DNA from: a virus
Lineage: Duplodnaviria > Heunggongvirae > Uroviricota > Caudoviricetes
Strand: one strand, 5' to 3'
DNA: 14,743 nt
IMG/VR virus record: IMGVR_UViG_2529293239_000005
Location: 1 to 14,743 of that record
Shown: positions 1 through 14,743 of the stretch, piece after piece
Layout of the letters: every line of letters begins with the position of its first letter
Numbering within the stretch: position 1 is the stretch's first letter
The notes under the pieces: generated by a model
What the model was told of the DNA's origin: nothing
Seen by the model: only the letters and a program-made list of their open reading frames with translations
Databases searched by the model: none
Position numbers and translations under genes: made by a program

Positions 1-77
1 CGTTGTTTTGGTGTGCTTCGCTGTCATAGGCTTTATCTCACAGCAGTAAATTAAAATTTTTGCGTTTTAACCCTTCA

Positions 78-302
78 CCTGTTCACCTTTTGATATTTTC
101 TCTTTTAATTCATAATGTTAAGGGGTGAACAGTTTCACAAAAACTATTCACCAACTGTTCACCACTGTTCACCCTTGAAGCTCAATAAACAATCAAAAAG
201 GTGAACAGTGAATAGTTTGGTGAACAGTTCATAAACAACTGTTCACCCTATAATATACTGATATAAAAGATATTTATGACAGGGTGAACAGTGGTGAACA
301 GT
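78..302. repeat. Iteron array, candidate replication origin: 10-bp unit GGTGAACAGT / ACTGTTCACC
   Basis: Perfect copies forward at 124-133, 200-209, 219-228, 283-292, 293-302 and reverse at 154-163, 164-173, 238-247; 9/10 copies at 78-87, 143-152, 208-216. AT-rich spacer 249-277 (possible unwinding element). Starts 13 bp past the primase stop codon (315-317). Confidence 0.6.
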
Positions 303-314
303 TATTCCATAAGT

Positions 315-2132
315 TTAATTTTTGCTATCGTCATTAGTGACCGATACACATGATGGCATCCAGTCTTCTGATTCCTCCGTCAGTGTCACGTTTGAACGCA
401 AACCGTGCTTCGTTTTCCGTTTCATATACTCCCTGCCATATTCCGCCATTGCCCCCGGCATATCTTTACCGAAGCGCGTCAGTGTTACAGGTTTACCAAA
501 CCCATGTGCCCTCATATAAGCCAGATAGGCATGATAGAGATACCTGCGTGGGCTGAATGGCACAATTTCAGCATTACCCACTAACAGGCCATCACACATT
601 ACCGACGCCATGAGATAGCCGCAGAAGTCCACCAGCGAATCCCCCTCTCGCTTTATCGCCAGTGCTTCTTCAGATTTCTGCTGCTCATATAACAGGCGTC
701 TGGCTTCGTCCTGGTCAGCAAACCGTGTAAGCAGATGGCGAATCACTACCGCCAGCTCACCTTCTATTTTTTCCGCCAGCATTGGATCGCGTTCGTTCTC
801 CGGTACAACTTCCGAAAAATTGAATATCACCCGACGACGTGAGATCCCCCCGCTGCGGTCACTGAATGACATGGCGTTATTGTTAACCGCCAGCACTACT
901 GCCGGAATACGCGTTGAGTAGGGGGCTTTGTGTTTTGGGTCAATTGCCACCTTGTCACCGCCTGTAATGGCCTTAATTCCTGCCCCATCACCAGCGTAGC
1001 GGGTCATATCCGGCATGATAATCAGCGAAAAGCCAACCACTAACGCGCGTTCCCTTGCATCTTCCAGCGCCTTCATGCTTGCCGATACTGTGTTGGCCTT
1101 ACCCGCCAGCATGGTGCAAATCTCCGCCATCACGCTTTTACCACTTCCCCCTGGACCTGTTACCTCAATGAATAACTGCCAGTCGTACCGGTTCGCCAGC
1201 ACCATGAATAATGCAGCCAGTACGCGATCCGCCTTGCGGTCATTCTCAGCCACCGAACGGCGTAACCACTTCCAGAAATTCGGCGCATGTGTTGCCAGCG
1301 TTTCCCCCTCTGCTGGTGGGCTGAAAGGTAATTCACTGGCAATTAACAACCAGTCGTTTTTGTTATGCTCCCGAAAATTACCTGTTCTGGTATCAAATAC
1401 CCCGTTACTGAATCCAATCAGGTTACGGGCTGTATTCCCCATTACAGGCAAACTTAACTTCATGGTATCGACCGCCGATTTAATGGCGTTCTGCGAATAG
1501 CTGATCTCCGCATCAATGAAAATCTGTGCCATAGCTCGCTGTAATTCTTTATCCTGTACTGGCTCCCATACAACGCCGTTGTAATGGTGAACAGTGTCAG
1601 AGTCAGCATGAATCGCCAGTTCACCGCCATAATGTGCCAGGAGAACTTCGCCGCGTTGACTTGCTCCCATCTGGTTAAGCGCCAGTGATGAAGCGTTATC
1701 GTCTTTTACCCGCTCTTTTTTCTTTACAGGCAGTTCAACTACCTTTTTCTTTTCCGCCTGCTCTGCCCGTTCACGTTCCAGATATTCACGCCAGTTCTCC
1801 CGTTTCTGGCTGTGCATTCCTTCAGGGTAATAATCAGCATCCCTGACACCTGCCGCTGCCAGTTTCTGCCCGATGGTATTAACAAGCCCCGGACGCAATA
1901 ACCCCGCCTGATAGAGACGCACGCGATAGCGTCCGTCCGGTACGATTTGCAGGTTGTCCAGTTCGGCAAGTTGTTGCTCTCCAAGCCAGACAGGAGGCAC
2001 GTTATCGCCAGCCAGTCGCCCGTCCTGTTCCTGCCACTGATTCGCATGTGCCCACGCATCACTACCCGCAAAAATGATGACTTCCGTCATTTTGTCACGC
2101 GGCTGGTGTTTTAAATTTGGCGCTTTTTTCAT
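315..2132 (-). CDS. Replication protein, P4 alpha-like primase / SF3-type helicase (pri-rep)
   Basis: Long ORF with Walker A P-loop GPGGSGKS and downstream hydrophobic Walker B-like stretch, as in phage/plasmid primase C-terminal NTPase domains. Start placed at ATG 2132 (GGAGAGAG SD upstream; ATGA overlap with upstream ORF stop) rather than the GTG at 2147 used by the ORF track. Iterons lie immediately 3'. Confidence 0.75.
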   Translation of the reverse strand: MKKAPNLKHQPRDKMTEVIIFAGSDAWAHANQWQEQDGRLAGDNVPPVWLGEQQLAELDNLQIVPDGRYRVRLYQAGLLRPGLVNTIGQKLAAAGVRDADYYPEGMHSQKRENWREYLERERAEQAEKKKVVELPVKKKERVKDDNASSLALNQMGASQRGEVLLAHYGGELAIHADSDTVHHYNGVVWEPVQDKELQRAMAQIFIDAEISYSQNAIKSAVDTMKLSLPVMGNTARNLIGFSNGVFDTRTGNFREHNKNDWLLIASELPFSPPAEGETLATHAPNFWKWLRRSVAENDRKADRVLAALFMVLANRYDWQLFIEVTGPGGSGKSVMAEICTMLAGKANTVSASMKALEDARERALVVGFSLIIMPDMTRYAGDGAGIKAITGGDKVAIDPKHKAPYSTRIPAVVLAVNNNAMSFSDRSGGISRRRVIFNFSEVVPENERDPMLAEKIEGELAVVIRHLLTRFADQDEARRLLYEQQKSEEALAIKREGDSLVDFCGYLMASVMCDGLLVGNAEIVPFSPRRYLYHAYLAYMRAHGFGKPVTLTRFGKDMPGAMAEYGREYMKRKTKHGLRSNVTLTEESEDWMPSCVSVTNDDSKN

Positions 2133-2428
2133 TTCTGCTCTCTCCACGCGGCAATCATGTTTTTCAGTTCCTGTAGTTTTTTATCAACATCCATACATGA
2201 CACATGGTTATTTCTGGAAAGCGGGATTTCCCGCCTGAATCTGCTAATAAAGATCTCCACGTTCAGCGAACTATGAAATGAATAGCCATCACGAATAAAA
2301 TACACACGGTCAAACATCAGTTCTTTTACCGTTACTCTGTTACCGTTCTTATCCAGATAAACAGCGCCGGGGATAGTTTTGGGGTGTGCATAACCGCTGG
2401 CAGTCAAGCCAGATAAATATGTTCTCAT
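2129..2428 (-). CDS. Hypothetical protein, 99 aa, overlapping the primase start
   Basis: ATG at 2428 with GGGGA SD upstream; stop overlaps the primase ATG as ATGA. Same strand and operon position as the small genes preceding alpha in P4-like elements. No recognisable motif. Confidence 0.5.
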   Translation of the reverse strand: MRTYLSGLTASGYAHPKTIPGAVYLDKNGNRVTVKELMFDRVYFIRDGYSFHSSLNVEIFISRFRREIPLSRNNHVSCMDVDKKLQELKNMIAAWREQK

Positions 2429-2434
2429 GATTAT

Positions 2435-2755
2435 TTATCCCCGATTTGAATCAGTATTCGCTTTCTTTATGGCATTTAATGCATCTGTGGCATTTTCAAT
2501 GGTGCACCGTAACGAAATATCAAACTGCCCAAGCATTGCCAGTAACAAACCGATATTACCCATATCAATGCGCATAGCCTTTTCGTCATAGTCCTCATTT
2601 TCTGACGCATGCCACATCAGGCTACCAATTGACGCAATACCCATTGATATATTGTCAGTAGCCCCATCCGCAGCGGAATAAACCTTTTTAGCAATATCAT
2701 GCTCACAGTTAAAATGCGGATTAATCAGGTACTGGTAATTTGACATATCAGGCAT
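2435..2755 (-). CDS. Hypothetical protein, 106 aa
   Basis: ATG at 2755, 8-bp overlap with the upstream small gene, 6-bp gap to the next gene; tightly packed operon. No recognisable motif. Confidence 0.5.
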   Translation of the reverse strand: MPDMSNYQYLINPHFNCEHDIAKKVYSAADGATDNISMGIASIGSLMWHASENEDYDEKAMRIDMGNIGLLLAMLGQFDISLRCTIENATDALNAIKKANTDSNRG

Positions 2756-2951
2756 GGCACACCCCCTGACGAATACGGGCGGCGAATACCATCACGCAGC
2801 CAGCCGGGGATTGCTGGCGTGCTTCCTGTTCGCTGGTGGCCACGATGTGAATCACGCGCGGTTGTGCGGTGCTCAGGGCGATAAAACGCCAGATGTATTT
2901 ATTCAGGTCGTGCGAGTCCCGCCCTTGCGGGTGTGTGGTATGATTTCTCAT
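2748..2951 (-). CDS. Small protein, 67 aa; possibly an Icd-like host cell-division inhibitor (tentative)
   Basis: ATG at 2951 with GAGG SD about 6 nt upstream. The ORF track extends to a GTG at 3146 but that extension covers the operator/promoter region. Sequence (MRNHTTHPQGRDSHDLNKYIW...ATSEQEARQQ...) resembles, from memory only, small Icd-like proteins annotated in P4-like prophages; unverified. Confidence 0.45.
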   Translation of the reverse strand: MRNHTTHPQGRDSHDLNKYIWRFIALSTAQPRVIHIVATSEQEARQQSPAGCVMVFAARIRQGVCHA

Positions 2952-3048
2952 AGCTACCTCGATACGCTTTCTATCGTTGGTGGTTAGAAGCCCGGTTAGT
3001 GTTAGCGCACTGCCGGGTTTCGTCGTTTCTGCACCTTGCATCAACAAG

Positions 3049-3100
3049 GTGTTAAACACCAATTTAAGCCTAGGTGTTAAACACGTCAAGTGTTGAACAC
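3049..3100. promoter_or_regulatory. Three 11-bp perfect palindromes GTGTT-N-AACAC (candidate operators) in a divergent promoter region
   Basis: GTGTTAAACAC at 3049-3059 and 3074-3084, GTGTTGAACAC at 3090-3100, plus inverted repeat CACCTTG...CAAGGTG at 3033-3052. Candidate leftward promoter: -35 TTGACG (3090..3085), -10 TAAATT (3066..3061). Candidate rightward promoter: -35 TTGAAC (3093-3098) inside operator 3. Confidence 0.55.
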
Positions 3101-3149
3101 TTATTTTTTTCCTGCATACTGCATTTGTTTTTTGTAAGGGGTACACAAC

Positions 3150-3329
3150 ATGGCGACAAAAGCAGTAAACGCAAAATCACAAACAGTTGCGGCAAGGGTT
3201 CCGCATGAAGTTATGAACAATGTTGAGGCGGTAAAAATGCCTGGTGAAAGTACAGGGCAGTTTGTAACAGCAGCATTAAAGCGAGAAGTTGAATACCGCC
3301 AGCGTCGCAAGGCCAAAGAGCAGGAGTAA
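3150..3329 (+). CDS. Small DNA-binding protein, 59 aa, ribbon-helix-helix-like; candidate repressor
   Basis: ATG 3150 with AAGGGG SD 9 nt upstream. Segment TVAARVPHEVMNNVEAVK then GESTGQFVTAALKREVEY fits a beta-strand/helix/helix (Arc/CopG-like) pattern. Sits directly beside the palindromic operators, divergent from the replication operon. Below the ORF-track length cutoff. Confidence 0.45.
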   Translation: MATKAVNAKSQTVAARVPHEVMNNVEAVKMPGESTGQFVTAALKREVEYRQRRKAKEQE

Positions 3330-3386
3330 CCATCACCAGCGCCGTGGTGCGGTGAACTGTGGCGCACAGGGTTACAGGTATCTACG

Positions 3387-3566
3387 ATGACTGACAAATC
3401 ATTAAAGAAATTATCCTCATCCAAGAAAAAACAACGCAAAAATGCGGTAAACGAACATGAACCGGAGAGATTCGCACCATGTGCGTTTATCCTTGAGAAG
3501 TACCTTAAAGAGTATTCTAGGAAAATACGCTCATTGCAGGCATGGCAGCGAATCGAGCCAGACTGA
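3387..3566 (+). CDS. Hypothetical small basic protein, 59 aa (Lys-rich N-terminus)
   Basis: ATG 3387, weak SD; co-directional with the RHH-like gene and followed by an intrinsic terminator. A 188-aa minus-strand ORF (3101-3667) overlaps it but crosses the operators and the terminator. Confidence 0.35.
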   Translation: MTDKSLKKLSSSKKKQRKNAVNEHEPERFAPCAFILEKYLKEYSRKIRSLQAWQRIEPD

Positions 3567-3630
3567 TAGCATTGCCCACTAGCCGACAACCTGGTATTCT
3601 GGATATGCTCAAGTTTAGTGTTATGCCACT

Positions 3631-3658
3631 GGCGACCGCCCCCGGTCGCCTTTGTTTT
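3631..3658 (+). terminator. Rho-independent terminator of the rightward two-gene module
   Basis: GGCGACCG-cccc-CGGTCGCC perfect 8-bp stem followed by TTTGTTTT. Confidence 0.6.
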
Positions 3659-3676
3659 ATGTGTCATAGCTCCCCC

Positions 3677-3901
3677 CTAGGCTGCCTTACCTGAATTAAC
3701 GCGGTCACGGCTTTGCACCCAGTCCATAACTTCGGAAAGCAACCAGCCTACAGAACGCCCCCCAAGATTACGGCGAGACGGAAAGCCCCCTTTCTTCTCC
3801 AGTTCGTAGCGTGTAGTACGGCTGACGCCTGTTAACTTACGACATTCATCCTCACGAATTACGCGATCTGTTAGTGATTGAAATTGTGTATTTTGATTCA
3901 T
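3677..3901 (-). CDS. alpA: AlpA/Vis-family phage transcriptional regulator (MerR-like HTH)
   Basis: 74-aa ORF with AlpA-family pattern (...FP...GGRSVGW...E...W...). ATG 3901..3899; C-terminus GKAA verified codon by codon. Confidence 0.8.
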   Translation of the reverse strand: MNQNTQFQSLTDRVIREDECRKLTGVSRTTRYELEKKGGFPSRRNLGGRSVGWLLSEVMDWVQSRDRVNSGKAA

Positions 3902-3932
3902 AAAAACACCCTCGAACGTAACCGAACGAGGG
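3902..3932 (-). terminator. Terminator-like hairpin plus U-tract immediately 5' of the alpA start codon, sequestering its SD
   Basis: Minus-strand reading: CCCTCG-(12-nt loop)-CGAGGG-TGTTTTT-ATG. The 3' arm CGAGGG contains the only SD-like element for alpA. Candidate promoter just upstream: -35 TTGCAC (3962..3957), 16-nt spacer, -10 TAAGAT (3939..3934). Confidence 0.4.
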
Positions 3933-4004
3933 CATCTTATTTACCATAGCAGTTGGTGCAATATTGGAAAAATAAACTTTATTCTAATTTATCGTTCTCC
4001 ATGA

Positions 4005-4859
4005 TTAATTTTCATTAGATAACATTTTTCTTATTTTTTCTAAAGAATCGCTGCGCATTATTTTTTCTAAGAAGGGTTTTACAGTCTGAGCAATAGCAAA
4101 GGTGTCCTTTTCACCATCAGGATACAAAGATACGGCAAGCACCCCTAATGAAATTTTTCTATCTGTAGACAACTCCCAAGATAATAAGTCAATTAATGGG
4201 ATTATCTTATAATCAATAATTTTACGTCGTATGCTCTCCCAACTTCCTGCAATTGGTTTGTCTGGCTCAACAATTGAAAGTTCACTACGCCATTTTGGTA
4301 ATAGTTTTGTAAACGCTTCAATCAACTCATCATCTCTGTTATGTAGTAAGTCAACAGAAACAAGCATATTATCTAATGTATCAGAAAGGAGATTCACTGG
4401 TTCACGCATCACAGCCCAAAACATCCCATTATCTTCTGATATTAAACTTCCAACCATCTCATTATCTATGATGATTGGTTTATCCTTCCAATATCCTCTT
4501 TCCGCAGTCAGTTTATTAATCATTGATATATCAAACCTTGTTACAGGTTTAATTCCATCATCATAACTTAGCTCAATTAACTTCGGCTGCACTTTATGGT
4601 CATATTCTTTTTGTTTATCACAAAACCAATCGTCTTCTTTAAGCTCTCCAAATGGATCCCCGTAATTATTATGCAACGGGTATTCAGCACCAAACATAAA
4701 ACCATATTCAGGCATCTCAGAATGTTTCATTGTTAAATCATCTTGTCGCCAATATAATTGGCGAAATAGATCTTTATCCGACAAGTTTTCTAGGCAATCA
4801 TATTTGCCTAAATCAAATGACTTTGGTAAATCTTTTTTACTATTTACTTTTTTCGTCAT
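4005..4859 (-). CDS. Hypothetical protein, 284 aa; AT-rich cargo gene between int and alpA
   Basis: ATG at 4859..4857 overlaps the integrase TGA (4858..4856) as ATGA; GAGAGGG SD 5-6 nt upstream. Visibly AT-rich versus neighbours (estimated by eye, not computed). No recognisable catalytic motif. Confidence 0.7.
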   Translation of the reverse strand: MTKKVNSKKDLPKSFDLGKYDCLENLSDKDLFRQLYWRQDDLTMKHSEMPEYGFMFGAEYPLHNNYGDPFGELKEDDWFCDKQKEYDHKVQPKLIELSYDDGIKPVTRFDISMINKLTAERGYWKDKPIIIDNEMVGSLISEDNGMFWAVMREPVNLLSDTLDNMLVSVDLLHNRDDELIEAFTKLLPKWRSELSIVEPDKPIAGSWESIRRKIIDYKIIPLIDLLSWELSTDRKISLGVLAVSLYPDGEKDTFAIAQTVKPFLEKIMRSDSLEKIRKMLSNEN

Positions 4860-6076
4860 TGTATCCCTCTCAATATCACAATATTTTCTTTATATCCTGC
4901 AATCATATCAAGACGCTCAACCCATAGATTCAGTGCGTCCCGTTTCGCCTGCAAATAGCGTGAATGGTTATAGGTTTTTTGCTGACCTGGCATCTGATGC
5001 GCTGTGATGTGCTCCACGATATGCGGATCGACACCTAAATCATTCAGCATAGTTGTAAACGTGTGTCGGAAATCATGCAGCGTCCAGTGTTCCTGCTTAA
5101 GCCGCTTATGCGCATTTCGTCCATATTGCGCCACCGTGGTATCTTTTTTCAGTTCGCCGAGTAATAACCCAGTGTGTGCGTTTTGCTCCACCAGCTTCTG
5201 AATGAACGGCAAAATGCCATCAGGAATAGGTCGGAATATTGTTACCTTCGTTTTGCTGTGCTCTTTTGGCACTGTCCACAACATTTCTTTCAGATCCCAT
5301 TCTTTGATCTCTGAAAGTCTGATCTCTGCCGTTCTGCACCCGAACACAATTAACAAGCGCATTAACGCACTGTAATAGGGAGCGAACACATCACCATCAA
5401 TAGCGCGTAGAATTTCTTTTAGTTCGCTGTTGCTGTGCACTCTCTCGCGGATTTCTGCTCTCTTACCCACATCAGTAACGATCAAATCGTCCAGGGCGTT
5501 GCTAAACGCGTAGCGCCGCCTGCGGCAAAACTTTAGCGCCTGTTTGCATGTCTGCATGACATGGCCCGCTGCTACTGGTGCTTTTTTTCGTACGCGGTCA
5601 AAACATGTGATCCACTGCCTTGTATCACACTTATCAAGGGGAATTGCCCCGATATGGCAAATGATGTGCTTATCCATACGCTGCACCAGCTTTATGTAAT
5701 CTTTGCGGTTATCCTTCGCGTATTCCTCCAGCCAGTAGTTAATCGCTTCCTTCACCGTAACGGGTTTTAGTGCTTCCTGTACTGTGGCGCACAACTCATA
5801 CCGAGGGTTTTTACCCTCAGCCAGCCATGCCCGGCACTGTGTTCGCTTTTCCCTTGCAGATTTCAGCGACAATTCCGGGTAAGCCCCCAGCTTTAACCGC
5901 TCTGCGGCAACCTCACGGCCTCCCGTTCGGTACCGGAAATACCAGGTTAATTTGCCTCCCTTTGAGTGTTTAATCTCCAGCCCGCCCCCGTCGGAGTAAA
6001 AACGCTCTTTTTCTGCCTGGACAGCCACCAATTTTTTTAACGTTGAATCGCTCAGTTTGTTTAGTGCTTTTCCCAC
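4856..6076 (-). CDS. int: P4-type tyrosine integrase / site-specific recombinase
   Basis: 406-aa ORF; N-terminus typical of P4-family integrases (LSDSTLKKL...GKLTWYFRYR); C-terminal catalytic signature HDFRHTF and tyrosine in KTYNHSRY. GTG start at 6076 with AGAGGA SD 7 nt upstream. Confidence 0.9.
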   Translation of the reverse strand: MGKALNKLSDSTLKKLVAVQAEKERFYSDGGGLEIKHSKGGKLTWYFRYRTGGREVAAERLKLGAYPELSLKSAREKRTQCRAWLAEGKNPRYELCATVQEALKPVTVKEAINYWLEEYAKDNRKDYIKLVQRMDKHIICHIGAIPLDKCDTRQWITCFDRVRKKAPVAAGHVMQTCKQALKFCRRRRYAFSNALDDLIVTDVGKRAEIRERVHSNSELKEILRAIDGDVFAPYYSALMRLLIVFGCRTAEIRLSEIKEWDLKEMLWTVPKEHSKTKVTIFRPIPDGILPFIQKLVEQNAHTGLLLGELKKDTTVAQYGRNAHKRLKQEHWTLHDFRHTFTTMLNDLGVDPHIVEHITAHQMPGQQKTYNHSRYLQAKRDALNLWVERLDMIAGYKENIVILRGIQ

Positions 6077-6112
6077 TATCAGATCCTCTTTTCAGTCCTC
6101 CAGCCTCAAAAA

Positions 6113-6136
6113 ACTGACCACACAACTGACCACACA
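6113..6136. repeat. Perfect tandem direct repeat ACTGACCACACA x2, 37-60 bp upstream of the int start
   Basis: Copies at 6113-6124 and 6125-6136, followed by a CA-rich low-complexity tract (about 6140-6250). Candidate regulator or integrase arm-type binding sites. Confidence 0.5.
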
Positions 6137-6457
6137 TTTCGCTGAAGCTCGGCAAACAACAACGAACAGCAACAAACAAGAAAGCTAATTAAATCATTGT
6201 ATATCAAACACATACACAAACAATCACGAACATCCCCGAACTACAAAAAACACTAAATGAGAAAATACGGGTATTTCTCAGCCTTCACAAAGAAGGGCAC
6301 CCCGAGTCATTTAAAACAAAATCAAAAGATTGCGATTAACGTCCCGTTAATCCCTGTTCTGGATCATGCCAGCGGAAAGCCAAAGACTCAACCCTAAAAA
6401 ATCCTCTGTGTCCCAGTTTGTGTCTCACGTTGTGGCCCACAGATAAATGGCAGGCAC

Positions 6458-6482
6458 AAAAAAACCGCCCATAAGGCGGCTT
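6458..6482 (-). terminator. Rho-independent terminator (minus strand)
   Basis: Minus strand reads CCGCC-ttatg-GGCGG followed by TTTTTTT (plus strand A-run 6458-6464), 37 nt past the stop of the 6519-6701 ORF. Confidence 0.5.
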
Positions 6483-6518
6483 AAGTAAATTATTCAGTCG
6501 TGAAGATTTAAATGAAAT

Positions 6519-6701
6519 CTATTTTCTGCATACGCTTTCTTCATGCAGTCGAAGTGCTTTTGCCAATTCCAATTGGAATGCAAAGGAAAGACGGGAACGG
6601 CTGATCTTGATACCGTCAATAATGATGTATGTAGGGTAAACAGTGACCATGCGGCCCAAGTATTGGAAGTGTTTAGGGTGGTTTACTTTATCGTTATTCA
6701 T
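6519..6701 (-). CDS. Hypothetical small protein, 60 aa from the ATG (ORF track extends to a TTG at 6770)
   Basis: In-frame ATG at 6701..6699; followed by an intrinsic terminator. Weak SD, no recognisable motif; may be a gene fragment. Confidence 0.3.
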   Translation of the reverse strand: MNNDKVNHPKHFQYLGRMVTVYPTYIIIDGIKISRSRLSFAFQLELAKALRLHEESVCRK

Positions 6702-7756
6702 TGTGTGCCATCCGTCTGGGTGGGGGTAATCCCGGCAACGGATGATTGATCTAAAATCGATCAAAATCAATAACTTAACAGATCACCAAATCCAGGGGGG
6801 TGTACATTGGCGAGCCTCCCTCAGCCTAACCTATACACGACCATAAAATAGGGGCGGATTCCTTCCAGTTGGGTGGGAAAATATCTGGGAGTTTGGATAC
6901 AGTAGCCAGGCAGGGTAACCAGACCCATAGATGAGAATGTTTATTATTCCCAAATATCCAGGCGAGGGGCCTGCTGTGGCTCTCTTTACGCGCCGCTGTG
7001 GCGTCTTCTCTCCTCTTTCTATACAATCCCATAGCTAACCCATTGCGAGGCTTACAGAGCGTTACAGAGCGTCCGTGTGAATATTGCATAAATGAAAGTG
7101 GTGAAAGGTCCGATTTGGTCAACTTTTAGACAACTATTTAACATATGCGCAACAGGTTAGACCTGTACCCTTTCAATAGGTCCGCCTCCTGGGCGCTGTG
7201 TACGCCCCATAACTGTGGCTCTTCTGTACCCATCCGGGAGCCATTCCACAGAGTAAACTGTAAAACTGATCTGCCTGTGAGTAACGCCCTTTTCCTGTGG
7301 ATAACTTCCACGCACTAACCCCATAAACTCCCCTTTTGAGGCGTCCGCCTCTTCAGGCCCTTTCTTGTGGCAAAAACACAAAAAGGGTTTAGGGCGGTGG
7401 CTACCGCCCCTGTAGATGGGAATGAGTCGCACTCGAAAGAGGGATTGAGAACCAATTCTCAAGTGATAATCGATCTCATTTGTGTTCGAAGTTTTCCCCA
7501 GAAAAATAATTTTGGGGTTAAGCATGTAAAATGCTACACACTTGCACTTTGTAATGATAATTAATTGACCATAAAAACAAATAGTTAGAAGCGCTGGGGG
7601 AGTCCCACTAGTTACACAATTGATTGCTTTTTGAGCTAAAACTGATTCTTTTACCGGGTATACAATCCATTTGATCGCCCTTTACCACATATTTAAACGG
7701 ATTTAAAGCCATTTATTTAGGGGGTTAGCAAAGTGTTGATTCCATGGTTACAGATA

Positions 7757-7788
7757 ACAAAAAAGCCCGCCGGGGGTTAGCCGGGGGC
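7757..7788 (-). terminator. Rho-independent terminator (minus strand) downstream of the tape-measure remnant
   Basis: GC-rich hairpin 7765-7788 (8 bp with one bulge, 7-nt loop) followed on the minus strand by a U-tract (plus strand A-run 7757-7764). Confidence 0.5.
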
Positions 7789-7894
7789 CTGTGGTTGGGG
7801 GTGTCAAACGTGGTTAGTTCGGCCCGCCCTGCATTAGCATGTTGAAAGCCTGCTGATTATTGCTCTCAACTTCAGAGCGTACCAGATCCTTAAC

Positions 7895-9413
7895 CTATCC
7901 ATCCTGCACTTTCACATTAACGTTCACGTTTAGCGGCTGGTTTAGCCACGCTGGCGGCGTCATCAGTGGATTACCTGCCATATCAACTTTAAGCTGTGGC
8001 GCTGTAATCGTCGGCGTAGGAGGTACATAAGTTGGATTGGAGTAAGAGCTTACCCACCCTGTTTTATCTGCTGGTTTGGCAAAGTCTGGATTAGTCGGAA
8101 GGTCTGGACTATGGAGGAAATCCCACAGTTTACCCAGCGGGCTATCTTTTTTCAGATTGCCCCCGGCGGTGGTGTCCTGTCCATACATGGCGTCGTTAGC
8201 GTCATGACCTTATCCCAGGCATAATCCCCACCTACCGAACCGACCGCAATGCTCCAGCCAACAGGACCGCCAGAGAGAGCCGCCGCGCCGCCTACCTTGC
8301 CAACTTTCGGACCCCGACCCGGTTTGTTTGGCTTGTCTTTACCTTCCCCACCAGATCCGCCAGTAGTAGCGGCTTCAATGCCACCAATAGCGGCGATCCC
8401 TTTCATGACCCCCAGTAATTTGGTTAGTGGGTTAAGCATGGTCAACAACCATTTAAAGGCTACGCCCAACTTCCAGATAGACCCGGCGAACATAGCCACC
8501 CCGGCGGCGTATGCTGCCATTTCGCCCCAGGCTTTAAGCTGCTCACCAGTGATCCCCATCTTGCTGGCGTAATACTCAATAATGCGGAAGGTCAGGATCA
8601 CAGTGTCATGCAACTCTGTAAACGCATCTGTGGCACCCTCAACGATTTTCCCGGCAATATGCCCGAACATCTCAAAGGCCCCACCAGAGCCGTTAACAGC
8701 GGCGCTGATAGCGTCGAAAGCGCTGGTTAATTCGTTGCCGAAGCCAGAAGCAAAGAAGATGTTCATCGCGTTCTGCATACTGGTTTGCAGGCGCTGCCAG
8801 CTTGCCCGGTTGGACTTCATAGCCTTATCCAGAGCGCCGCCGTTACGAGCTGCGGCTTTCATCTGTTTAGCCACTTCCGGGAGGATGTCCTTAGAGAACA
8901 GCTTCCCTTGTTGCATCAGGTCAAACAGATCCTTTTCTGTAAGGTTGGTTGTCCCTTTCATCTGGTTGAGAGCCTTAACGAACAGACCCACAGCCCCCGG
9001 GAGAGCTTCGGACAACTGGCCTTTGAGTTCTTCACTCATTACCGTTCCTTTAGACATCATCTGATTCAAACTTTTCAAAGCGCGGCTGGCTTCATCGGCT
9101 GAAGCACCTGTAACAAGGCCCCATTCACTGGCACCCTCAAAGATGGATCGCATCTGGTCTTTAGGGAGCTTGTCACCAACAGCGGCGGCAAACTGAGTGT
9201 AATCACGGGAAGTCTTGAGGAGATCCAGCCCCAAACGGTTGGATTGATCACGGAGATAATCAAACTCTTTAGCGGCCTTATCTGTGGAACCGGTGATCGC
9301 TGTCAGACCAGAAAGCGCGGATTCAAAATCCTGTCCGGTGGTCATGATCTTGCCGCTCAGCGCCACAGTTGCGGCAATGGTGATCGCCCCGCCTGCACCC
9401 TCGATCATGGAGG
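7895..9413 (-). pseudogene. Phage tail tape-measure protein gene remnant: 5'-truncated by IS629 and frameshifted
   Basis: ORF 8152-9408 has the Ala/Gly/Leu/Ser-rich, low-complexity composition recalled for tape-measure N-terminal regions (e.g. the stretch ...ELKGQLSEALPGAVGLFVKALNQM...). Its reading frame stays open up to the IS boundary at 9414. ORF 7895-8188 continues in a different frame with a 37-bp overlap, implying a 1-bp indel near 8204-8215. Confidence 0.7.
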
Positions 9414-9455
9414 TGAACCGCCCCGGGTTTCCTGGAGAGTGTTTTATCTGTGAAC

Positions 9456-10346
9456 TCAGGCTGCCAGATCATCGTTTCCGATGGAAGCATAATAAGCTTT
9501 TTCTGCTTCTGCCGGAGGGATGTGGCCCAGCCTTTCCAGCAATCGTCGATTATTATACCAGTCCACCCACGTGAGTGTGGCCAGTTCCACTTCTGCACGG
9601 TTTTTCCAGCTCTTACGGTGTATTACCTCCGCTTTGTAAAGACCATTGATGCTCTCCGCCATCGCGTTGTCATACGAGTCGCCTGTACTTCCTGTTGATG
9701 CCAGTAATCCGGCTTCCTTAAGCCGCTGTGTGTAGGCCAGCGATACATACTGAGAACCTTTATCACTGTGATGGACCGTGCCGGACGGTCGACGGGCCCA
9801 TAACGCCTGCTCCAGTGCATCCAGCACGAATGTCGTCTCCATGGACGATGAGACCCGCCACCCCACAATGTATCCGGCAAACACATCAATGATGAACGCC
9901 ACATAGACGAAGCCCTGCCATGTGCTGACGTAAGTAAAATCAGCTACCCACAGCTGGTCAGGTCGTTCTGCCACGAACTGACGGTTTACGCGGTCGCCTG
10001 CGGCAACGGCTTTCCGGCTGATGGTCGTACGGACCTTTTTACCCCGGAGAACACCGGCAAGTCCCATAACCGCCATGAGACGTGCCACAGTGCATCTGGC
10101 CACTCTGATACCTTCCCGTAACAACTGACGCCAGACTTTACGCACACCGTATACCTGATGATTCCCATCGTATACGCGCAGTATCTCTTTCTTCAGCCAG
10201 TCATCGCGCTGCGCACGGGCACTGCGTTTATCCGGATGATGTCGCTGTTGCTGACAGTGGTAATACGTTGACGGGGCAATATGCAGTTCGCTGCATAGCG
10301 GTCCGACCCCGTACTGCTCACGCAGCTTATCCAGCAGTGGCATCAT
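9456..10346 (-). CDS. IS3-family transposase OrfB (DDE catalytic domain), normally made as an OrfAB fusion by -1 frameshifting
   Basis: 296-aa ORF recognised from memory as IS629-type OrfB (integrase-core DDE transposase); overlaps orfA in the -1 frame at the A6 run. Confidence 0.85.
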
Positions 10347-10669
10347 TTTTTCCAGAGGCGGTCGAACTCCGCCTTCGCAAAATAAGCGGAAGCCTGGCGA
10401 AGGATATCGTTACTGCGGCGCAGTTCACGATTTTCACGCTCCAGCTCTTTCAGACGCTGACGTTCAGCGGTGGTGAGCCCGCCATCACCGCCCCCGGTAT
10501 CCCGCTCATGCTGGCGAACCCAGACACGCAGAGTCTCCGGCGTACAGCCAATCTTTGGAGCAATGGAACAAATTGTCGCCCATTGTGAGTCATATTCGCC
10601 CTGACTTTCCAGAACCATACGGACTGCCCGTTGACGGACTTCGGGGGAAAAACGAGTATTTTTAGTCAT
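10343..10669 (-). CDS. IS3-family transposase OrfA (HTH, leucine-zipper region)
   Basis: 108-aa [22 protein letters not shown]..., recognised as IS629/IS1203-type OrfA; ends in the A6 frameshift window. Confidence 0.85.
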
Positions 10670-10811
10670 CCTGTTTACCTCTTTCTCAGGAAGTTTAGTC
10701 TCCAGGATTCCCGGGGCGGTTCATTGCCTGTATGATCAATCGACTTTGTAGAGTTTCGGACGAAGGTCCGCAGAATATTCGCAGTATTAAATAAGTGTTC
10801 ATTAATGCGGC

Positions 10812-10853
10812 AAAAACTAATACACCGCATCAATGTAACATCTCTGCGGTGTA
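10812..10853 (-). terminator. Probable intrinsic terminator of apbC
   Basis: Hairpin TACACCGCA...TGCGGTGTA (10822-10853) followed on the minus strand by TTAGTTTTTG; lies between the apbC stop and the IS629 end. Confidence 0.45.
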
Positions 10854-10882
10854 TGAAGAATAACCAGAATGGTTAATAGGCG

Positions 10883-11992
10883 TTAGACCGCGCGGAAGGA
10901 AATCTCGCCTGGAATGACTTCACCCTGCCAGTAGAGCTGAGCTGCAACGCGGTCAGCCAGCTGGCGGTAGATAGCGGTAAATTCGCTCTCCGGACGGCTG
11001 ATAACCGTTGGCGTGCCTTTATCGAGATCCTCACGTAAGGAGATGTGTAACGGCATCTGCCCCAGCAGCTGTGTGTGGTATTTTTCAGCCAGTTTCTCTG
11101 CACCACCGGTACCGAAAATCGGTTCATGGTGACCACAGTTACTGCAAATATGCACACTCATGTTCTCGACAATACCAAGCACCGGAACCTCGACTTTCTC
11201 GAACATCACAATGCCTTTTTTCGCATCGATCAACGCGATGTCCTGCGGGGTGGTGACCACGACTGCACCAGTTACTGGAATGTTTTGCGCCAGCGTCAAT
11301 TGAATGTCACCGGTGCCTGGCGGCATATCAAGCACCAGATAGTCGAGATCCGGCCACAAGGTTTCCTGCAACATCTGCATTAACGCCTTGCTCGCCATCG
11401 GTCCACGCCACACCATCGCATTGTCGTCAGTGACCAGATAACCAATTGAATTGGTTGCCAGGCAATGAGACATAATCGGTGCCATATGGGTACCGTCCGG
11501 CGAAGTTGGACGCTGATTTTCTGCGCCCAGCATGGTGGGAATTGATGGGCCGTAGATATCGGCGTCCAGAATGCCGACTTTCGCCCCTTCCGCCGCCAGT
11601 GCCAGCGCCAGGTTTACCGCCGTGGAGGATTTACCCACGCCGCCTTTACCGGAACTGACCGCAATGATGTTCTTCACACCATTAATACCCGGCTGATTCT
11701 TCACGCGTTTTAAGGTGGCGATATTGTGCGACAGTTTCCAGTCGATAGCTTTCGCCCCGGTGATACGCAGCAGTTCGGCGCTACATTGCTCTTTTAACTC
11801 TTCAAACGCGCTATGCCAGACGAATGGCATAACCAGTTCCACATGCAACGTGTCGTCCATCCAGGCGACATGGTGCAACGCTTTCAGCGTGGTGAGGTTA
11901 TGCTTCAGGGTTGGGTGCTGAAAATTGGCCAGTGTCCCGGCGACCATTGCGCGCAAGGCTTCTGGTGATTTGGCCTGGGATTGTTCGTTCAT
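10883..11992 (-). CDS. apbC: Fe-S cluster carrier ATPase ApbC/Mrp
   Basis: 369-aa protein MNEQSQAKSPEALRAM... with P-loop GKGGVGKS and CxxC; recognised as E. coli Mrp. ATG at 11992..11990; the ORF track's 12022 start is an upstream in-frame extension. Confidence 0.95.
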   Translation of the reverse strand: MNEQSQAKSPEALRAMVAGTLANFQHPTLKHNLTTLKALHHVAWMDDTLHVELVMPFVWHSAFEELKEQCSAELLRITGAKAIDWKLSHNIATLKRVKNQPGINGVKNIIAVSSGKGGVGKSSTAVNLALALAAEGAKVGILDADIYGPSIPTMLGAENQRPTSPDGTHMAPIMSHCLATNSIGYLVTDDNAMVWRGPMASKALMQMLQETLWPDLDYLVLDMPPGTGDIQLTLAQNIPVTGAVVVTTPQDIALIDAKKGIVMFEKVEVPVLGIVENMSVHICSNCGHHEPIFGTGGAEKLAEKYHTQLLGQMPLHISLREDLDKGTPTVISRPESEFTAIYRQLADRVAAQLYWQGEVIPGEISFRAV

Positions 11993-12123
11993 CCCTACTC
12001 CTTTTTTGTATAGATAAACCATCAGCTGATAGTTTACCTGAAGAATATAGAGAAGTACTTACTTAACATTTTCCCATTTGGTACTATCTAACCCCTTTTC
12101 ACTATTAAGAAGTAATGCCTACT

Positions 12124-14157
12124 ATGACTCAAGTCGCGAAGAAAATTCTGGTGACGTGCGCACTGCCGTACGCTAACGGCTCAATCCACCTCGGCCATAT
12201 GCTGGAGCACATCCAGGCTGATGTCTGGGTCCGTTACCAGCGAATGCGCGGCCACGAGGTCAACTTCATCTGCGCCGACGATGCCCACGGTACACCGATC
12301 ATGCTGAAAGCTCAGCAGCTTGGTATCACCCCGGAGCAGATGATTGGCGAAATGAGTCAGGAGCATCAGACTGATTTCGCAGGCTTTAACATCAGCTATG
12401 ACAACTATCACTCGACACACAGCGAAGAGAACCGCCAGTTGTCAGAACTTATCTACTCTCGCCTGAAAGAAAACGGTTTTATTAAAAACCGCACCATCTC
12501 TCAGCTGTACGATCCGGAAAAAGGCATGTTCCTGCCGGACCGTTTTGTGAAAGGCACCTGCCCGAAATGTAAATCCCCGGATCAATACGGCGATAACTGC
12601 GAAGTCTGCGGCGCGACCTACAGCCCGACTGAACTGATCGAGCCGAAATCGGTGGTTTCTGGCGCTACCCCGGTAATGCGTGATTCTGAACACTTCTTCT
12701 TTGATCTGCCCTCTTTCAGCGAAATGTTGCAGGCATGGACCCGCAGCGGTGCGTTGCAGGAGCAGGTGGCAAACAAAATGCAGGAGTGGTTTGAATCTGG
12801 CCTGCAACAGTGGGATATCTCCCGCGACGCACCTTACTTCGGTTTTGAAATTCCGAACGCGCCGGGCAAATATTTCTACGTCTGGCTGGACGCACCGATT
12901 GGCTACATGGGTTCTTTCAAGAATCTGTGCGACAAGCGCGGCGACAGCGTAAGCTTCGATGAATACTGGAAGAAAGACTCCACCGCCGAGCTGTACCACT
13001 TCATCGGTAAAGATATCGTTTACTTCCACAGCCTGTTCTGGCCTGCCATGCTGGAAGGCAGCAACTTCCGCAAGCCGACCAACCTGTTTGTTCATGGCTA
13101 TGTGACGGTGAACGGCGCGAAGATGTCCAAGTCTCGCGGCACCTTTATTAAAGCCAGCACCTGGCTGAATCATTTTGACGCAGACAGCCTGCGTTACTAC
13201 TACACTGCGAAACTCTCTTCGCGCATCGATGATATCGATCTCAACCTGGAAGATTTCGTTCAGCGTGTGAATGCCGATATCGTTAACAAAGTGGTTAACC
13301 TGGCCTCCCGTAATGCGGGCTTTATCAACAAGCGTTTTGACGGCGTGCTGGCAAGCGAACTGGCTGACCCGCAGTTGTACAAAACCTTCACTGATGCCGC
13401 TGAAGTGATTGGTGAAGCGTGGGAAAGCCGTGAATTTGGTAAAGCCGTGCGCGAAATCATGGCGCTGGCTGATCTGGCTAACCGCTATGTCGATGAACAG
13501 GCTCCGTGGGTGGTGGCGAAACAGGAAAGCCGCGATGCCGACCTGCAGGCAATTTGCTCAATGGGCATCAACCTGTTCCGCGTGCTGATGACTTACCTGA
13601 AGCCGGTACTGCCGAAACTGACCGAGCGTGCAGAAGCATTCCTCAATACGGAACTGACCTGGGATGGTATCCAGCAACCGCTGCTGGGCCACAAAGTGAA
13701 TCCGTTCAAGGCGCTGTATAACCGCATCGATATGAGGCAGGTTGAAGCACTGGTGGAAGCCTCTAAAGAAGAAGTAAAAGCCGCTGCCGCGCCGGTAACT
13801 GGCCCGCTGGCAGATGATCCGATTCAGGAAACCATCACCTTTGACGACTTCGCTAAAGTTGACCTGCGCGTGGCGCTGATTGAAAACGCAGAGTTTGTTG
13901 AAGGTTCTGACAAACTGCTGCGCCTGACGCTGGATCTCGGCGGTGAAAAACGCAATGTCTTCTCCGGTATTCGTTCTGCTTACCCGGATCCGCAGGCACT
14001 GATTGGTCGTCACACCATTATGGTGGCTAACCTAGCACCACGTAAAATGCGCTTCGGTATCTCTGAAGGCATGGTGATGGCTGCCGGTCCTGGCGGGAAA
14101 GATATTTTCCTGCTAAGCCCGGATGCCGGTGCTAAACCGGGTCATCAGGTGAAATAA
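12124..14157 (+). CDS. metG: Methionyl-tRNA synthetase
   Basis: 677-aa protein [26 protein letters not shown]... with HIGH-type motif (HLGH), KMSKS, zinc knuckle CPKC...C..CG and C-terminal tRNA-binding domain. Start taken as the second ATG (12124), matching the E. coli MetG N-terminus. Confidence 0.97.
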
Positions 14158-14166
14158 TCCCCCTTC

Positions 14167-14196
14167 AAGGCGCTGCATCGACAGCGCCTTTTCTTT
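14167..14196 (+). terminator. Rho-independent terminator of metG
   Basis: AAGGCGCTG-catcga-CAGCGCCTT stem-loop followed by TTCTTT. Confidence 0.6.
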
Positions 14197-14297
14197 ATAA
14201 ATTCCTAAAGTTGTTTTCTTGCGATTTTGTCTCTCTCTAACCCGCATAAATACTGGTAGCATCTGCATTCAACTGGATAAAATTACAGGGATGCAGA

Positions 14298-14528
14298 ATG
14301 AGACACTTTATCTATCAGGACGAAAAATCACATAAATTCTGGGCAGTTGAGCAACAGGGAAACGAGTTGCATATCAGTTGGGGAAAAGTTGGCACCAAAG
14401 GGCAAAGCCAGATAAAAAGTTTTTCAGATGCTGCGGCAGCGGCAAAAGCGGAGCTTAAGCTGATTGCGGAGAAGGTGAAGAAGGGGTATGTGGAGCAAGC
14501 GAAGGATAATGAGGTGTACTGGCAATAG
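14298..14528 (+). CDS. WGR-domain protein, 76 aa; probably the N-terminal remnant of a molR/yehI-like gene cut by an IS
   Basis: N-terminus FIYQDEKSHKFWAVE...WGKVGTKGQ...KGY matches the WGR domain pattern. The ORF stops 8 codons after the domain, where an IS3-family terminus begins (TGTACTG at about 14515). Confidence 0.55.
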   Translation: MRHFIYQDEKSHKFWAVEQQGNELHISWGKVGTKGQSQIKSFSDAAAAAKAELKLIAEKVKKGYVEQAKDNEVYWQ

Positions 14529-14743
14529 CGGACACTACCATTTGTTCTTTTTTTAAGCAGCCATCTGATGATATTTTTCCCTGAAGGCTGCCGGGGAGAT
14601 ATTCCCCAGACGAGAGTGACGACGCTGACGATTGTAGAAAATCTCAATGTATTCCCGTATTACTGAGATGGCTTCATCCCGGTTATTAAAACGATAGTGG
14701 CTCAGGCTCTCATTTTTCAGCGTTCCCCAGAAGCTTTCCATCG
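14515..14743 (-). mobile_element. Second IS3-family element (partial), terminus near 14515-14530
   Basis: Transposase stop at 14553-14555 followed by about 25-40 bp of presumptive terminal inverted repeat; plus-strand TGTACTGGCAATAGCGGACAC resembles IS3/IS150-group termini. Exact boundary not determinable here. Confidence 0.55.
14553..14743 (-). CDS. IS3-family transposase OrfB, C-terminal end (partial; continues beyond the window)
   Basis: C-terminal sequence ...FWGTLKNESLSHYRFNNRDEAISVIREYIEIFYNRQRRHSRLGNISPAAFREKYHQMAA is typical of IS3-family DDE transposase tails. Different from the IS629 copy at 9414-10723. Confidence 0.75.
   Translation of the reverse strand, partial: MESFWGTLKNESLSHYRFNNRDEAISVIREYIEIFYNRQRRHSRLGNISPAAFREKYHQMAA

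Follow-up and report, generated by a model that had tools for sequence, protein, structure and literature searches.

The stretch of DNA analysed here, called the window, is 14,743 nucleotides (nt) long and is held in IMG/VR as virus record IMGVR_UViG_2529293239_000005. It comes from the thiM-metG region of an enterobacterial chromosome: the genome CP099865.1 is 99.993% identical to it over positions 2-14743, and Shigella sonnei is the NCBI label of the database clusters that hold its proteins. Judged by its gene sequences, the leftmost part of the window, positions 1-6263, is a Gram-negative phage-inducible chromosomal island (PICI) of the EcCICFT073 type and not a P4 satellite. The best explanation as a whole, to which we assign a probability of roughly 85%, is that the window carries the integrase-to-origin half of an 11.2-kb PICI inserted in the thiM riboswitch, with regulation and packaging as proposed below. 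The element itself is an ordinary member of a known family, slightly unusual in its riboswitch attachment (att) site and in having an insertion sequence (IS) beside its origin. What we consider the most interesting thing in the interval is a predicted antisense RNA, which the initial annotation, made from the letters of the window and a list of open reading frames (ORFs), did not see.

Genes and features of the island

The features of the island and its right border are as follows.

1-6263: island portion, the leftmost part of the window
76-307: replication origin, nine iterons GGTGAACAG / CTGTTCACC in two opposed sets that flank AT-rich spacers, immediately past the 3' end of the replicase gene
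315-2132, minus strand: Pri/Rep, 605 amino acids (aa), D5_N/DUF5906/Pox_D5; superfamily 3 (SF3) helicase and origin-binding initiator
1638-2132, minus strand: N-terminal domain of Pri, about 120 aa, TOPRIM-like fold
2129-2428, minus strand: DUF4222 protein (PF13973); the 3' end of the gene overlaps the pri start, and EcCICFT073 has it in the same place
2435-2755, minus strand: 106-aa protein of unassigned function (phrog_15327); its start overlaps the icd-like stop
2748-2951, minus strand: Icd-like protein, 67 aa (NF033153, 71 bits), first gene of the leftward replication operon
2951-3027, plus strand: predicted cis-antisense RNA, about 76 nt; 5' hairpin with an anti-Shine-Dalgarno, 3' GC-rich hairpin, U-rich tail
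3047-3100: control region, three palindromic GTGTTnAACAC operators overlapping the leftward promoter
3089-3061: leftward promoter, TTGACG, 17 nt, TAAATT
3150-3329, plus strand: YlcI/YnfO-family protein, 59 aa (NF041551), divergent
3387-3566, plus strand: conserved 59-aa ORF, second gene of the divergent module, also in a second island (L005)
3631-3650, plus strand: intrinsic terminator, an 8-bp stem (7 GC) followed by TTTGTTTT; it closes the ylcI-orf59 unit and is convergent with the alpA end
3677-3901, minus strand: AlpA (PF05930, 58.8 bits); 66% identical to EcCICFT073 AlpA and 45% to P4 Vis
4005-4859, minus strand: DUF6387 protein, 284 aa, 34% GC, with a 4-nt overlap between its start and the int stop
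4856-6076, minus strand: tyrosine integrase (Int), 406 aa, Arm-DNA-bind_3 and Phage_integrase domains
6104-6179: attP arm region, with a tandem repeat CTGACCACAC at 6114-6135
6264-6277: att core ATACGGGTATTTCT, attR copy, located by comparing the occupied site with the empty sites of K-12 and of sister genomes

The four parts on which the initial annotation had built a satellite, a P4-type integrase, AlpA, a primase/helicase and an iteron origin, were all found, and the genes among them are on the minus strand. Its description of a one-strand layout broken by one small divergent module is also accurate, as ylcI and the 59-aa ORF are the only plus-strand genes. The 59-aa ORF is 63% identical to CFT073 WP_000130015 (tblastn E 1e-16) and is unannotated by RefSeq in the copy of the island in Escherichia coli FCI56. 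For the 106-aa protein we found no match in Pfam, NCBIfam or PADLOC.

Gene order and homology place the island with EcCICFT073, the prototype Gram-negative PICI (Fillol-Salom et al. 2018, 2019; PMC6092414, PMC6739421), the sequence of which was taken from the CFT073 genome for comparison. The order is identical in both: int, alpA, the divergent ylcI module, icd-like, small ORFs, DUF4222, pri, iteron origin, late zone and a terminal 93-aa ORF. Homology is full-length, with identities of 66% for Int, 66% for AlpA, 61% for YlcI, 94% for the Icd-like protein, 34% for DUF4222, 48% for Pri and 71% for the terminal 93-aa ORF (FCI56 copy). The two islands differ in that EcCICFT073 has its att site beside phoQ and lacks the DUF6387 gene that follows int in the window. 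They differ also in the late zone, where the FCI56 copy has a fusion of ClpP protease and capsid together with a DUF1441 homologue of small terminases (TerS), whereas EcCICFT073 has a lambda E-like capsid, a decoration gene and RppA. Two cos-type repeats are found in both, mEp460-like in the FCI56 copy and of the lambda cosN kind in EcCICFT073.

SatelliteFinder defines PICI Type A by an integrase, a regulator (alpA), a primase-replicase, a capsid-morphogenesis gene and a small terminase (PMC10085698). The first three are in the window and, by homology, the FCI56 copy supplies the last two, its capsid fusion and its TerS homologue. A PICI is expected to lack genes for lysis and tails; the window has none, and the FCI56 copy carries lambda I and a K' fragment (see below). 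The initial annotation had allowed that the core genes could come from unrelated elements, or that they were an internal fragment of a full-size prophage. The primase, AlpA and integrase belong together, and the whole is a discrete island with att repeats and with empty sites in sister genomes, not a piece from inside a full-size prophage. Among 5,426 complete E. coli genomes, 50 carry at least 80% of positions 1-6263 and 1,762 carry parts, the partial carriage indicating modular exchange.

Boundaries and the thiM riboswitch

The copy in strain FCI56 (record L001) is 99.94% identical to the window island and lies between thiM and rcnR. Comparing both FCI56 junctions with the empty site of K-12 shows that the 14-bp direct repeat ATACGGGTATTTCT bounds an element of 11.2 kb. 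In FCI56 the repeat thus supplies the second att site that the initial annotation had proposed to look for on the left, and the size agrees with the range of about 10-15 kb for att-bounded PICIs. In the window lineage the island measures about 12.5 kb, IS included. We place its last base at 6263, since two empty sister genomes, CP162080 and CP162048, join window position 6264 straight to the thiM side. Both belong to the IS-rich lineage of the window and are island-free. The element extends past the right end of 6140 given in the initial annotation.

A block of about 76 bp with the tandem CTGACCACAC is present at both island ends. The two blocks are 87% similar, and this is the layout expected of arm-type integrase sites. 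By analogy with the arm repeats of P4 attP, the CTGACCACAC repeats are candidate Int-binding arm sites.

The att core sits in the middle of the thiamine pyrophosphate (TPP) aptamer of thiM, and positions 6264-6314 are its detached 5' half. The intact K-12 aptamer scores 71.2 bits, against a gathering threshold of 54.3, whereas the thiM side in FCI56 scores 33.3 and the attR side in the window 21.6 (positions scored: 6264-6314 in the window, 9923-10057 in L001 and 2337-2433 in L003). The left end of the island does not rebuild the missing half. With another element found at this region, a duplication of about 75 bp does rebuild the aptamer. ARAGORN found no tRNA, so the att site is not of the tRNA type. 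As the island splits the aptamer, the thiMD genes of carriers must be expressed without their riboswitch and native promoter.

Some observations weigh against a functional PICI of the kind proposed. Another prophage-like element, the one with the 75-bp duplication, occupies the att region in other DNA, which may run counter to the criterion that a PICI att site is never used by prophages. In this genome, a 1,264-bp IS separates the origin from the cos/late zone and may affect packaging size or expression. The FCI56 late zone also holds a tail-gene fragment, lambda I and K' (see below). In addition, the antisense RNA, the repressor role of YlcI and the loss of primase activity are predictions.

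The IS is an IS3-family element that flanks the window twice, at 14510-14743 and 25 nt to the left of position 1. Its left copy (L025 19436-20699) is inserted between the island origin and a cos-like repeat, with a 3-bp overlap at L001 14974-14976. This position is what gives some weight to another reading, in which the island is a decaying, non-mobilisable remnant in an IS-rich, Shigella-type genome, either passive DNA or DNA kept for one gene of benefit to the host. The flanking chromosome, heavily rearranged by IS629 and by the second IS, and the fragmentary state of the neighbouring prophage point the same way. Against it, all window ORFs are intact, identity to the E. coli copy is 99.94% and the IS stands in non-coding DNA. 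FCI56 retains two intact att copies, attR is intact in the window, and the island-free sister genomes are consistent with recent gain or loss. We regard decay as unlikely, though it is the alternative that survives best, and prefer the main reading given above.

Replication operon and its control region

Pri is encoded by the last gene of a leftward operon that begins with icd-like. Neighbouring frames of the operon overlap or are 7 nt apart (2755/2748, 2435/2428 and 2132/2129). Such spacing suggests translational coupling, in which case a block at the first cistron should depress the replicase.

Three copies of GTGTTnAACAC overlap the leftward promoter, where 0.01 would be expected. Across related islands this operator motif varies together with the N-terminus of YlcI, a pattern that fits a cognate pair of repressor and operator, and that linkage alone could also give. 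To the eye, the YlcI sequence looks ribbon-helix-helix-like. We suggest that YlcI may be the repressor of the leftward operon. To our knowledge, no Stl-type repressor has been described for Gram-negative PICIs.

A predicted antisense RNA over the first cistron

In phage P1 (c4-icd-ant) and in P4 (CI RNA-kil), a small RNA governs translation of a short first cistron of the Icd family and thereby the downstream genes. The RNA predicted here, read from the plus strand, is fully complementary to the 5' untranslated region, Shine-Dalgarno sequence and AUG of icd-like. The DNA just upstream of the icd-like start codon is conserved among islands that differ elsewhere. A covariance model of the region (R1) found 94 copies, 49 of them distinct, at loci of PICIs and of capsid-forming PICIs (cf-PICIs). 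These come from seven genera, represented by E. coli, Rahnella, Klebsiella, Morganella, Hafnia, Serratia and Superficieibacter. It should be noted that species-representative genomes gave four loci with Icd-like homologues, and that the diversity came from a viral-contig collection. The model had no match in P4.

In the alignment of these copies, the share of paired cells is 92%, compared with no more than 43% in controls with slid partners, and double changes are seen at 11 of the 16 pairs. The covariation score was above that of all 500 shuffles, with the caveat that the alignment is fitted to the model. An independent MAFFT alignment folded with RNAalifold gave, for the plus strand, 17 pairs at -20.0 kcal/mol, ten of them with compensatory changes and many G·U. 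An extended -10 element, TGgTATGAT, lies at 2936-2944 on the plus strand. It is kept or improved to TATAAT in other islands, and a divergent group has a -10-like hexamer at the corresponding place. The U-rich tail after the 3' GC hairpin is conserved too, for example as GUUGUUUUUU in relatives.

The same conserved structure at 2949-3028 could be read on the sense strand, as a leader of the icd-like mRNA, for instance a processed immunity RNA of the C4/CI kind ending in ACCA. P1 C4 and P4 CI are sense-encoded leader RNAs upstream of genes of the icd/kil type, which speaks for such a leader, and so does an invariant ACCA after the first hairpin of the sense strand, where both hairpins can form. 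The sense-strand model was in fact the first that we tried; RNAalifold recovered one hairpin only, and an excess of A·C pointed to the other strand. Helix cells that are not Watson-Crick number 44 A·C against 1 G·U when read as sense, which assigns the structure to the plus strand because the A·C cells become wobble pairs only there. Folding agrees, with five pairs at -3.1 kcal/mol by RNAalifold for the sense strand, and with minimum free energies of -36.5 kcal/mol (z -5.7) for plus and -20.5 kcal/mol (z -1.9) for minus. The conserved -10 element and U-rich tail are on the plus strand as well, and the Rfam C4 family (RF01695), scanned over both strands of 1-6600, gave no match with an E value of 1 or less. 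We therefore hold a sense-strand leader to be quite improbable and keep to the antisense RNA. A kissing interaction between the two leader hairpin loops was also considered and rejected, the loop sequences being without covariation.

The only Rfam match in 1-6600 is a sub-threshold one to SymR (RF01809) at 2952-3024 on the plus strand. The likeness is in layout: SymR, about 77 nt long, is likewise antisense to its target in cis, begins close to the start codon, covers the Shine-Dalgarno sequence and AUG and has two hairpins. The target of SymR is SymE, whereas here it is the Icd-like gene, and at 32.8 bits against a gathering threshold of 61 the RNA is not a member of the SymR family. C4 and CI differ from it in being processed from the same strand and in acting at separate target sites; the RNA predicted here is a full antisense in cis that would have a promoter and a terminator to itself. 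When the PICI control region was compared with the CI region of P4 by BLASTN, no similarity was seen.

The link to P4 is instead in the cistron. A 65-aa ORF that follows the CI RNA of P4 (L004 8168-8365, minus strand) matches NF033153 at 76 bits, and hhalign gives it a probability of 94% with the Icd-like protein. PICIs and P4 thus share a homologous first cistron, under RNA control in P4 and, by our prediction, in PICIs, with different RNAs. In the RefSeq record of P4 this ORF lies inside an obsolete 137-aa 'cI' coding sequence.

We did not find a description of such an RNA in the searchable literature. The predicted RNA is conserved and apparently undescribed, and it probably keeps the replication genes of the island silent. 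A wider proposal is that this RNA, placed over the Icd-like ribosome-binding site, is common to Gram-negative PICIs and cf-PICIs from seven or more enterobacterial genera, that it acts as an RNA-level immunity or noise filter, the cis-antisense counterpart of P4 CI and P1 C4 on a homologous first cistron, and that a variable hairpin gives lineage specificity. We put this proposal forward tentatively, at slightly worse than even odds.

Replicase and origin

Between 79 and 301 there are nine copies of the octamer GGTGAACAG, counting both orientations, where 0.08 copies would be expected by chance in the window. It is the same octamer as in the annotated type-1 ori/crr repeats of P4. Origins of Gram-negative PICIs have been described as a pair of iteron sets flanking AT-rich DNA, close behind the 3' end of the replication gene (PMC6092414), and the layout at 76-307 agrees with this.

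Pri is 51% identical to residues 320-771 of P4 alpha, and at the C-terminus it matches the P4 alpha origin-binding domain of known structure (1ka8, E 1.8e-24). Its first approximately 150 residues gave no alignment with the primase half of P4 alpha. The N-terminal domain is conserved, and in other islands it is also fused ahead of helicases of the RepA/AAA_25 type. In our comparison with the motifs of DnaG and P4 alpha, the position of the EGxxD glutamate is a nearly invariant alanine and that of DxD reads Q-A-G. No zinc-binding segment was found in the Pri N-terminus. A primase of the DnaG/P4-alpha type has a zinc domain together with the catalytic glutamate and DxD of TOPRIM, and none of these could be recognised in Pri. 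Its motifs suggest that Pri is a helicase and initiator with a degenerate TOPRIM, probably without primase activity and relying on the primase of the host, as the TOPRIM-like domain lacks the catalytic residues. The label 'primase' is probably wrong across the whole Pri family.

Late zone and packaging

The initial annotation had supposed that a packaging module, if any, would lie left of the window. In the near-identical FCI56 copy it does: a TerS homologue, a protease-capsid fusion and cos-like repeats are found there. In brief, the late zones of FCI56 and of the second island L005, which has another att site, encode a 57-aa ORF, a 637-aa fusion of ClpP protease and major capsid protein, a 161-aa DUF1441 protein and the 93-aa ORF. 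The DUF1441 protein is 65% identical to the TerS of the lambdoid phage mEp460, and the fusion is 58% identical to mEp460 gp05. mEp460 DNA from upstream of terS through terS aligns with the island at 73%. The island contains two copies of a 73-nt repeat, one ahead of the TerS gene and one beside the origin; the repeat matches DNA 120-190 nt upstream of terS in mEp460-type phages, where cos is expected. Such kinship points to lambdoid phages of the mEp460/Gifsy-2 head type as the probable helpers.

We also considered the DUF1441 protein as an Rpp. A phmmer search against all PDB chains gave no match, and the protein is a TerS homologue instead; a solved RppC structure has been reported, and we assume that it was among the chains searched. 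Within the FCI56 late zone, at L001 11598-12390, lie the lambda tail-assembly gene I and a 3' fragment of K (K'), whose identity to resident lambdoid prophages is about 94%. This looks like a capture, and late-gene captures of the kind have been described in the literature.

For the window lineage itself, the sequence of CP099865.1 was read beyond the 1,264-bp IS. The next 558 nt, with a cos-like repeat and the 57-aa ORF, are 100% identical to FCI56, which makes a late zone of the classical PICI kind very likely in this lineage. It could still be asked whether the window is the front half of a cf-PICI (EcCIEDL933 type; preprint 10.1101/2022.09.08.507074), with a left late zone encoding capsid, protease, portal, connectors, HNH, TerS and the large terminase (TerL). 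In other E. coli strains, cf-PICIs at this att site do begin with an int-DUF6387-alpA-pri front half that is about 96-99% identical to that of the window. This front half is thus found joined either to a classical late zone or to a full cf-PICI late zone with capsid, protease, portal, HNH, TerS and TerL, and four of the loci that we compared (L018, L019, L021 and L022) show the latter join. The window, in contrast, is 99.94% identical to the classical copy in FCI56, and past the IS its lineage continues as that copy and not with the 81-aa and SSB genes that follow pri in cf-PICIs. As judged from CP099865.1 and FCI56, the late zone has no portal, connectors, HNH or TerL. A cf-PICI is accordingly very unlikely here. 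The genomes that show this front half with a classical late zone in some and a cf-PICI late zone in others (L017-L022) were CP082045, CP008697, CP114367, CP182331 and JAVJLR01. CP182331 carries two cf-PICI copies with the window-type front half at different chromosomal sites.

Relation to satellite P4

The island resembles P4 in parts. It has an SF3 helicase of the alpha type, the origin-binding domain of which is a winged helix, TGTTCACC iterons beyond the 3' end of that gene, a Vis/AlpA regulator and an Icd-like first ORF of the replication operon. P4 differs in gene order and in Int (22% identity), and the zinc-finger/TOPRIM primase domain of P4 alpha is absent from Pri. The late zone is lambdoid here and P2-related in P4, and where P4 regulates by a sense-encoded CI RNA, the structured RNA here is predicted to be antisense. 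The genes sid, delta, psu and epsilon are absent from the window and from the full FCI56 copy; a BLASTP search of the element proteins against those of P4 found alpha (partial), Vis and Int only, in line with the initial annotation, which had seen no psu, sid or delta. A P4-like satellite of a P2-type helper that has lost or replaced its sid-delta-psu capsid-size module would account for the 51% match of Pri to alpha, the P4 type-1 iteron, the 45% match of AlpA to Vis and the homology of the Icd-like protein to the first ORF of the P4 left operon, and is nevertheless the least credible reading, already contradicted by gene content and further by the distant Int, by the PICI order of int, alpA, pri, origin and late zone, by the derivation of the late genes and cos-like repeats from a lambdoid phage of the mEp460 type and not from P2, and by the missing primase domain. 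The assignment to Gram-negative PICIs rests on the EcCICFT073 gene order and full-length homology, kinship with P4 being in parts only. The first label, P4/PICI-like, holds for PICI and falls for P4.

Integrase, DUF6387 and AlpA

In all 12 complete contexts examined (Rahnella, Klebsiella, Morganella and E. coli), the DUF6387 gene lies between int and alpA and overlaps int by 4 nt. Its GC content is 30-37% throughout, and the contexts span three kinds of replicase and three kinds of late zone. The gene could be thought of as an obligate, co-inherited partner of int. We reject this, as the tree of DUF6387 conflicts with that of int and the closest int relatives, EcCICFT073 and L005, are without the gene. 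The same observations make DUF6387 an exchangeable accessory gene of the int-alpA slot, a place described in the literature for accessory genes of PICIs.

The initial annotation pointed to elements of this sort as known hot spots of anti-phage and helper-interference cargo. DUF6387 is the sole candidate cargo gene, and no convincing defence match came from PADLOC: six of the seven window proteins scanned, DUF6387 included and int not among the seven, had no match, and AlpA had a marginal one (E 0.003). We found neither a structural neighbour nor a known fold for DUF6387, and the literature has a passing mention of it only. AlpA proteins have a described role as activator and as excision-directionality factor (PMC6092414; preprint 10.1101/2022.09.08.507074).

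DNA to the right of the island

The remainder of the window holds the following features.

about 6313-9414: what is left of a second prophage-like element, namely a tape-measure gene in truncated form (8152-9408), a 97-aa ORF and degraded integrase DNA
9415-10724: IS629, 1,310 bp, with an ALIL frameshift pseudoknot at 10272-10388 and without a target-site duplication
right of IS629: apbC and metG
14298-14528, plus strand: start of a DUF4132/WGR gene, a 76-aa ORF with the DUF4132 N-terminus (Pfam match WGR), cut by the IS at 14510

The second prophage-like element, a remnant here, is also found in E. coli strain H2 (L002 20001-33310), where it sits at the same riboswitch region with the duplication of about 75 bp that rebuilds the aptamer. 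IS629 stands in place of the rest of the prophage together with rcnR, rcnA, rcnB and yehA-E, which are present in other E. coli. In other E. coli the DUF4132 gene is found downstream of metG. At gathering thresholds, Rfam found nothing in the window beyond the IS629 frameshift pseudoknot.

Proposed life cycle

We suggest that the integrase inserted the island at the 14-bp core inside the TPP riboswitch aptamer of thiM. During quiescence, a YlcI-type repressor bound to the three operators may hold icd-like, orf106, DUF4222 and pri off. The constitutive antisense RNA would mask the ribosome-binding site of the first cistron and, given the presumed coupling, leader mRNA that is not translated would yield no replicase. 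As described for the family, a helper phage would induce alpA, and AlpA would then activate the operon and direct excision. Pri/Rep would bind the CTGTTCACC iterons via its domain resembling the winged helix of P4 alpha, unwind the origin as an SF3 helicase and use the host primase. For packaging, homology suggests that the late zone supplies the TerS homologue, the protease-capsid fusion and two cos-like sites, and that the large terminase of the helper packages the island into helper-built or modified heads with helper tails.

Implications

As an element, the island adds little: E. coli commonly carries PICIs of such architecture, and existing tools detect them. Its att site offers a testable example of a satellite rewiring a riboswitch-controlled host operon. 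DUF6387, low in GC and always after int in diverse satellites, is a clean candidate for a new satellite accessory function. The antisense RNA, if true, would be a missing piece in the silencing of Gram-negative PICIs, and would link the control of PICIs to the RNA immunity of P4 and P1 via a homologous Icd-like cistron.

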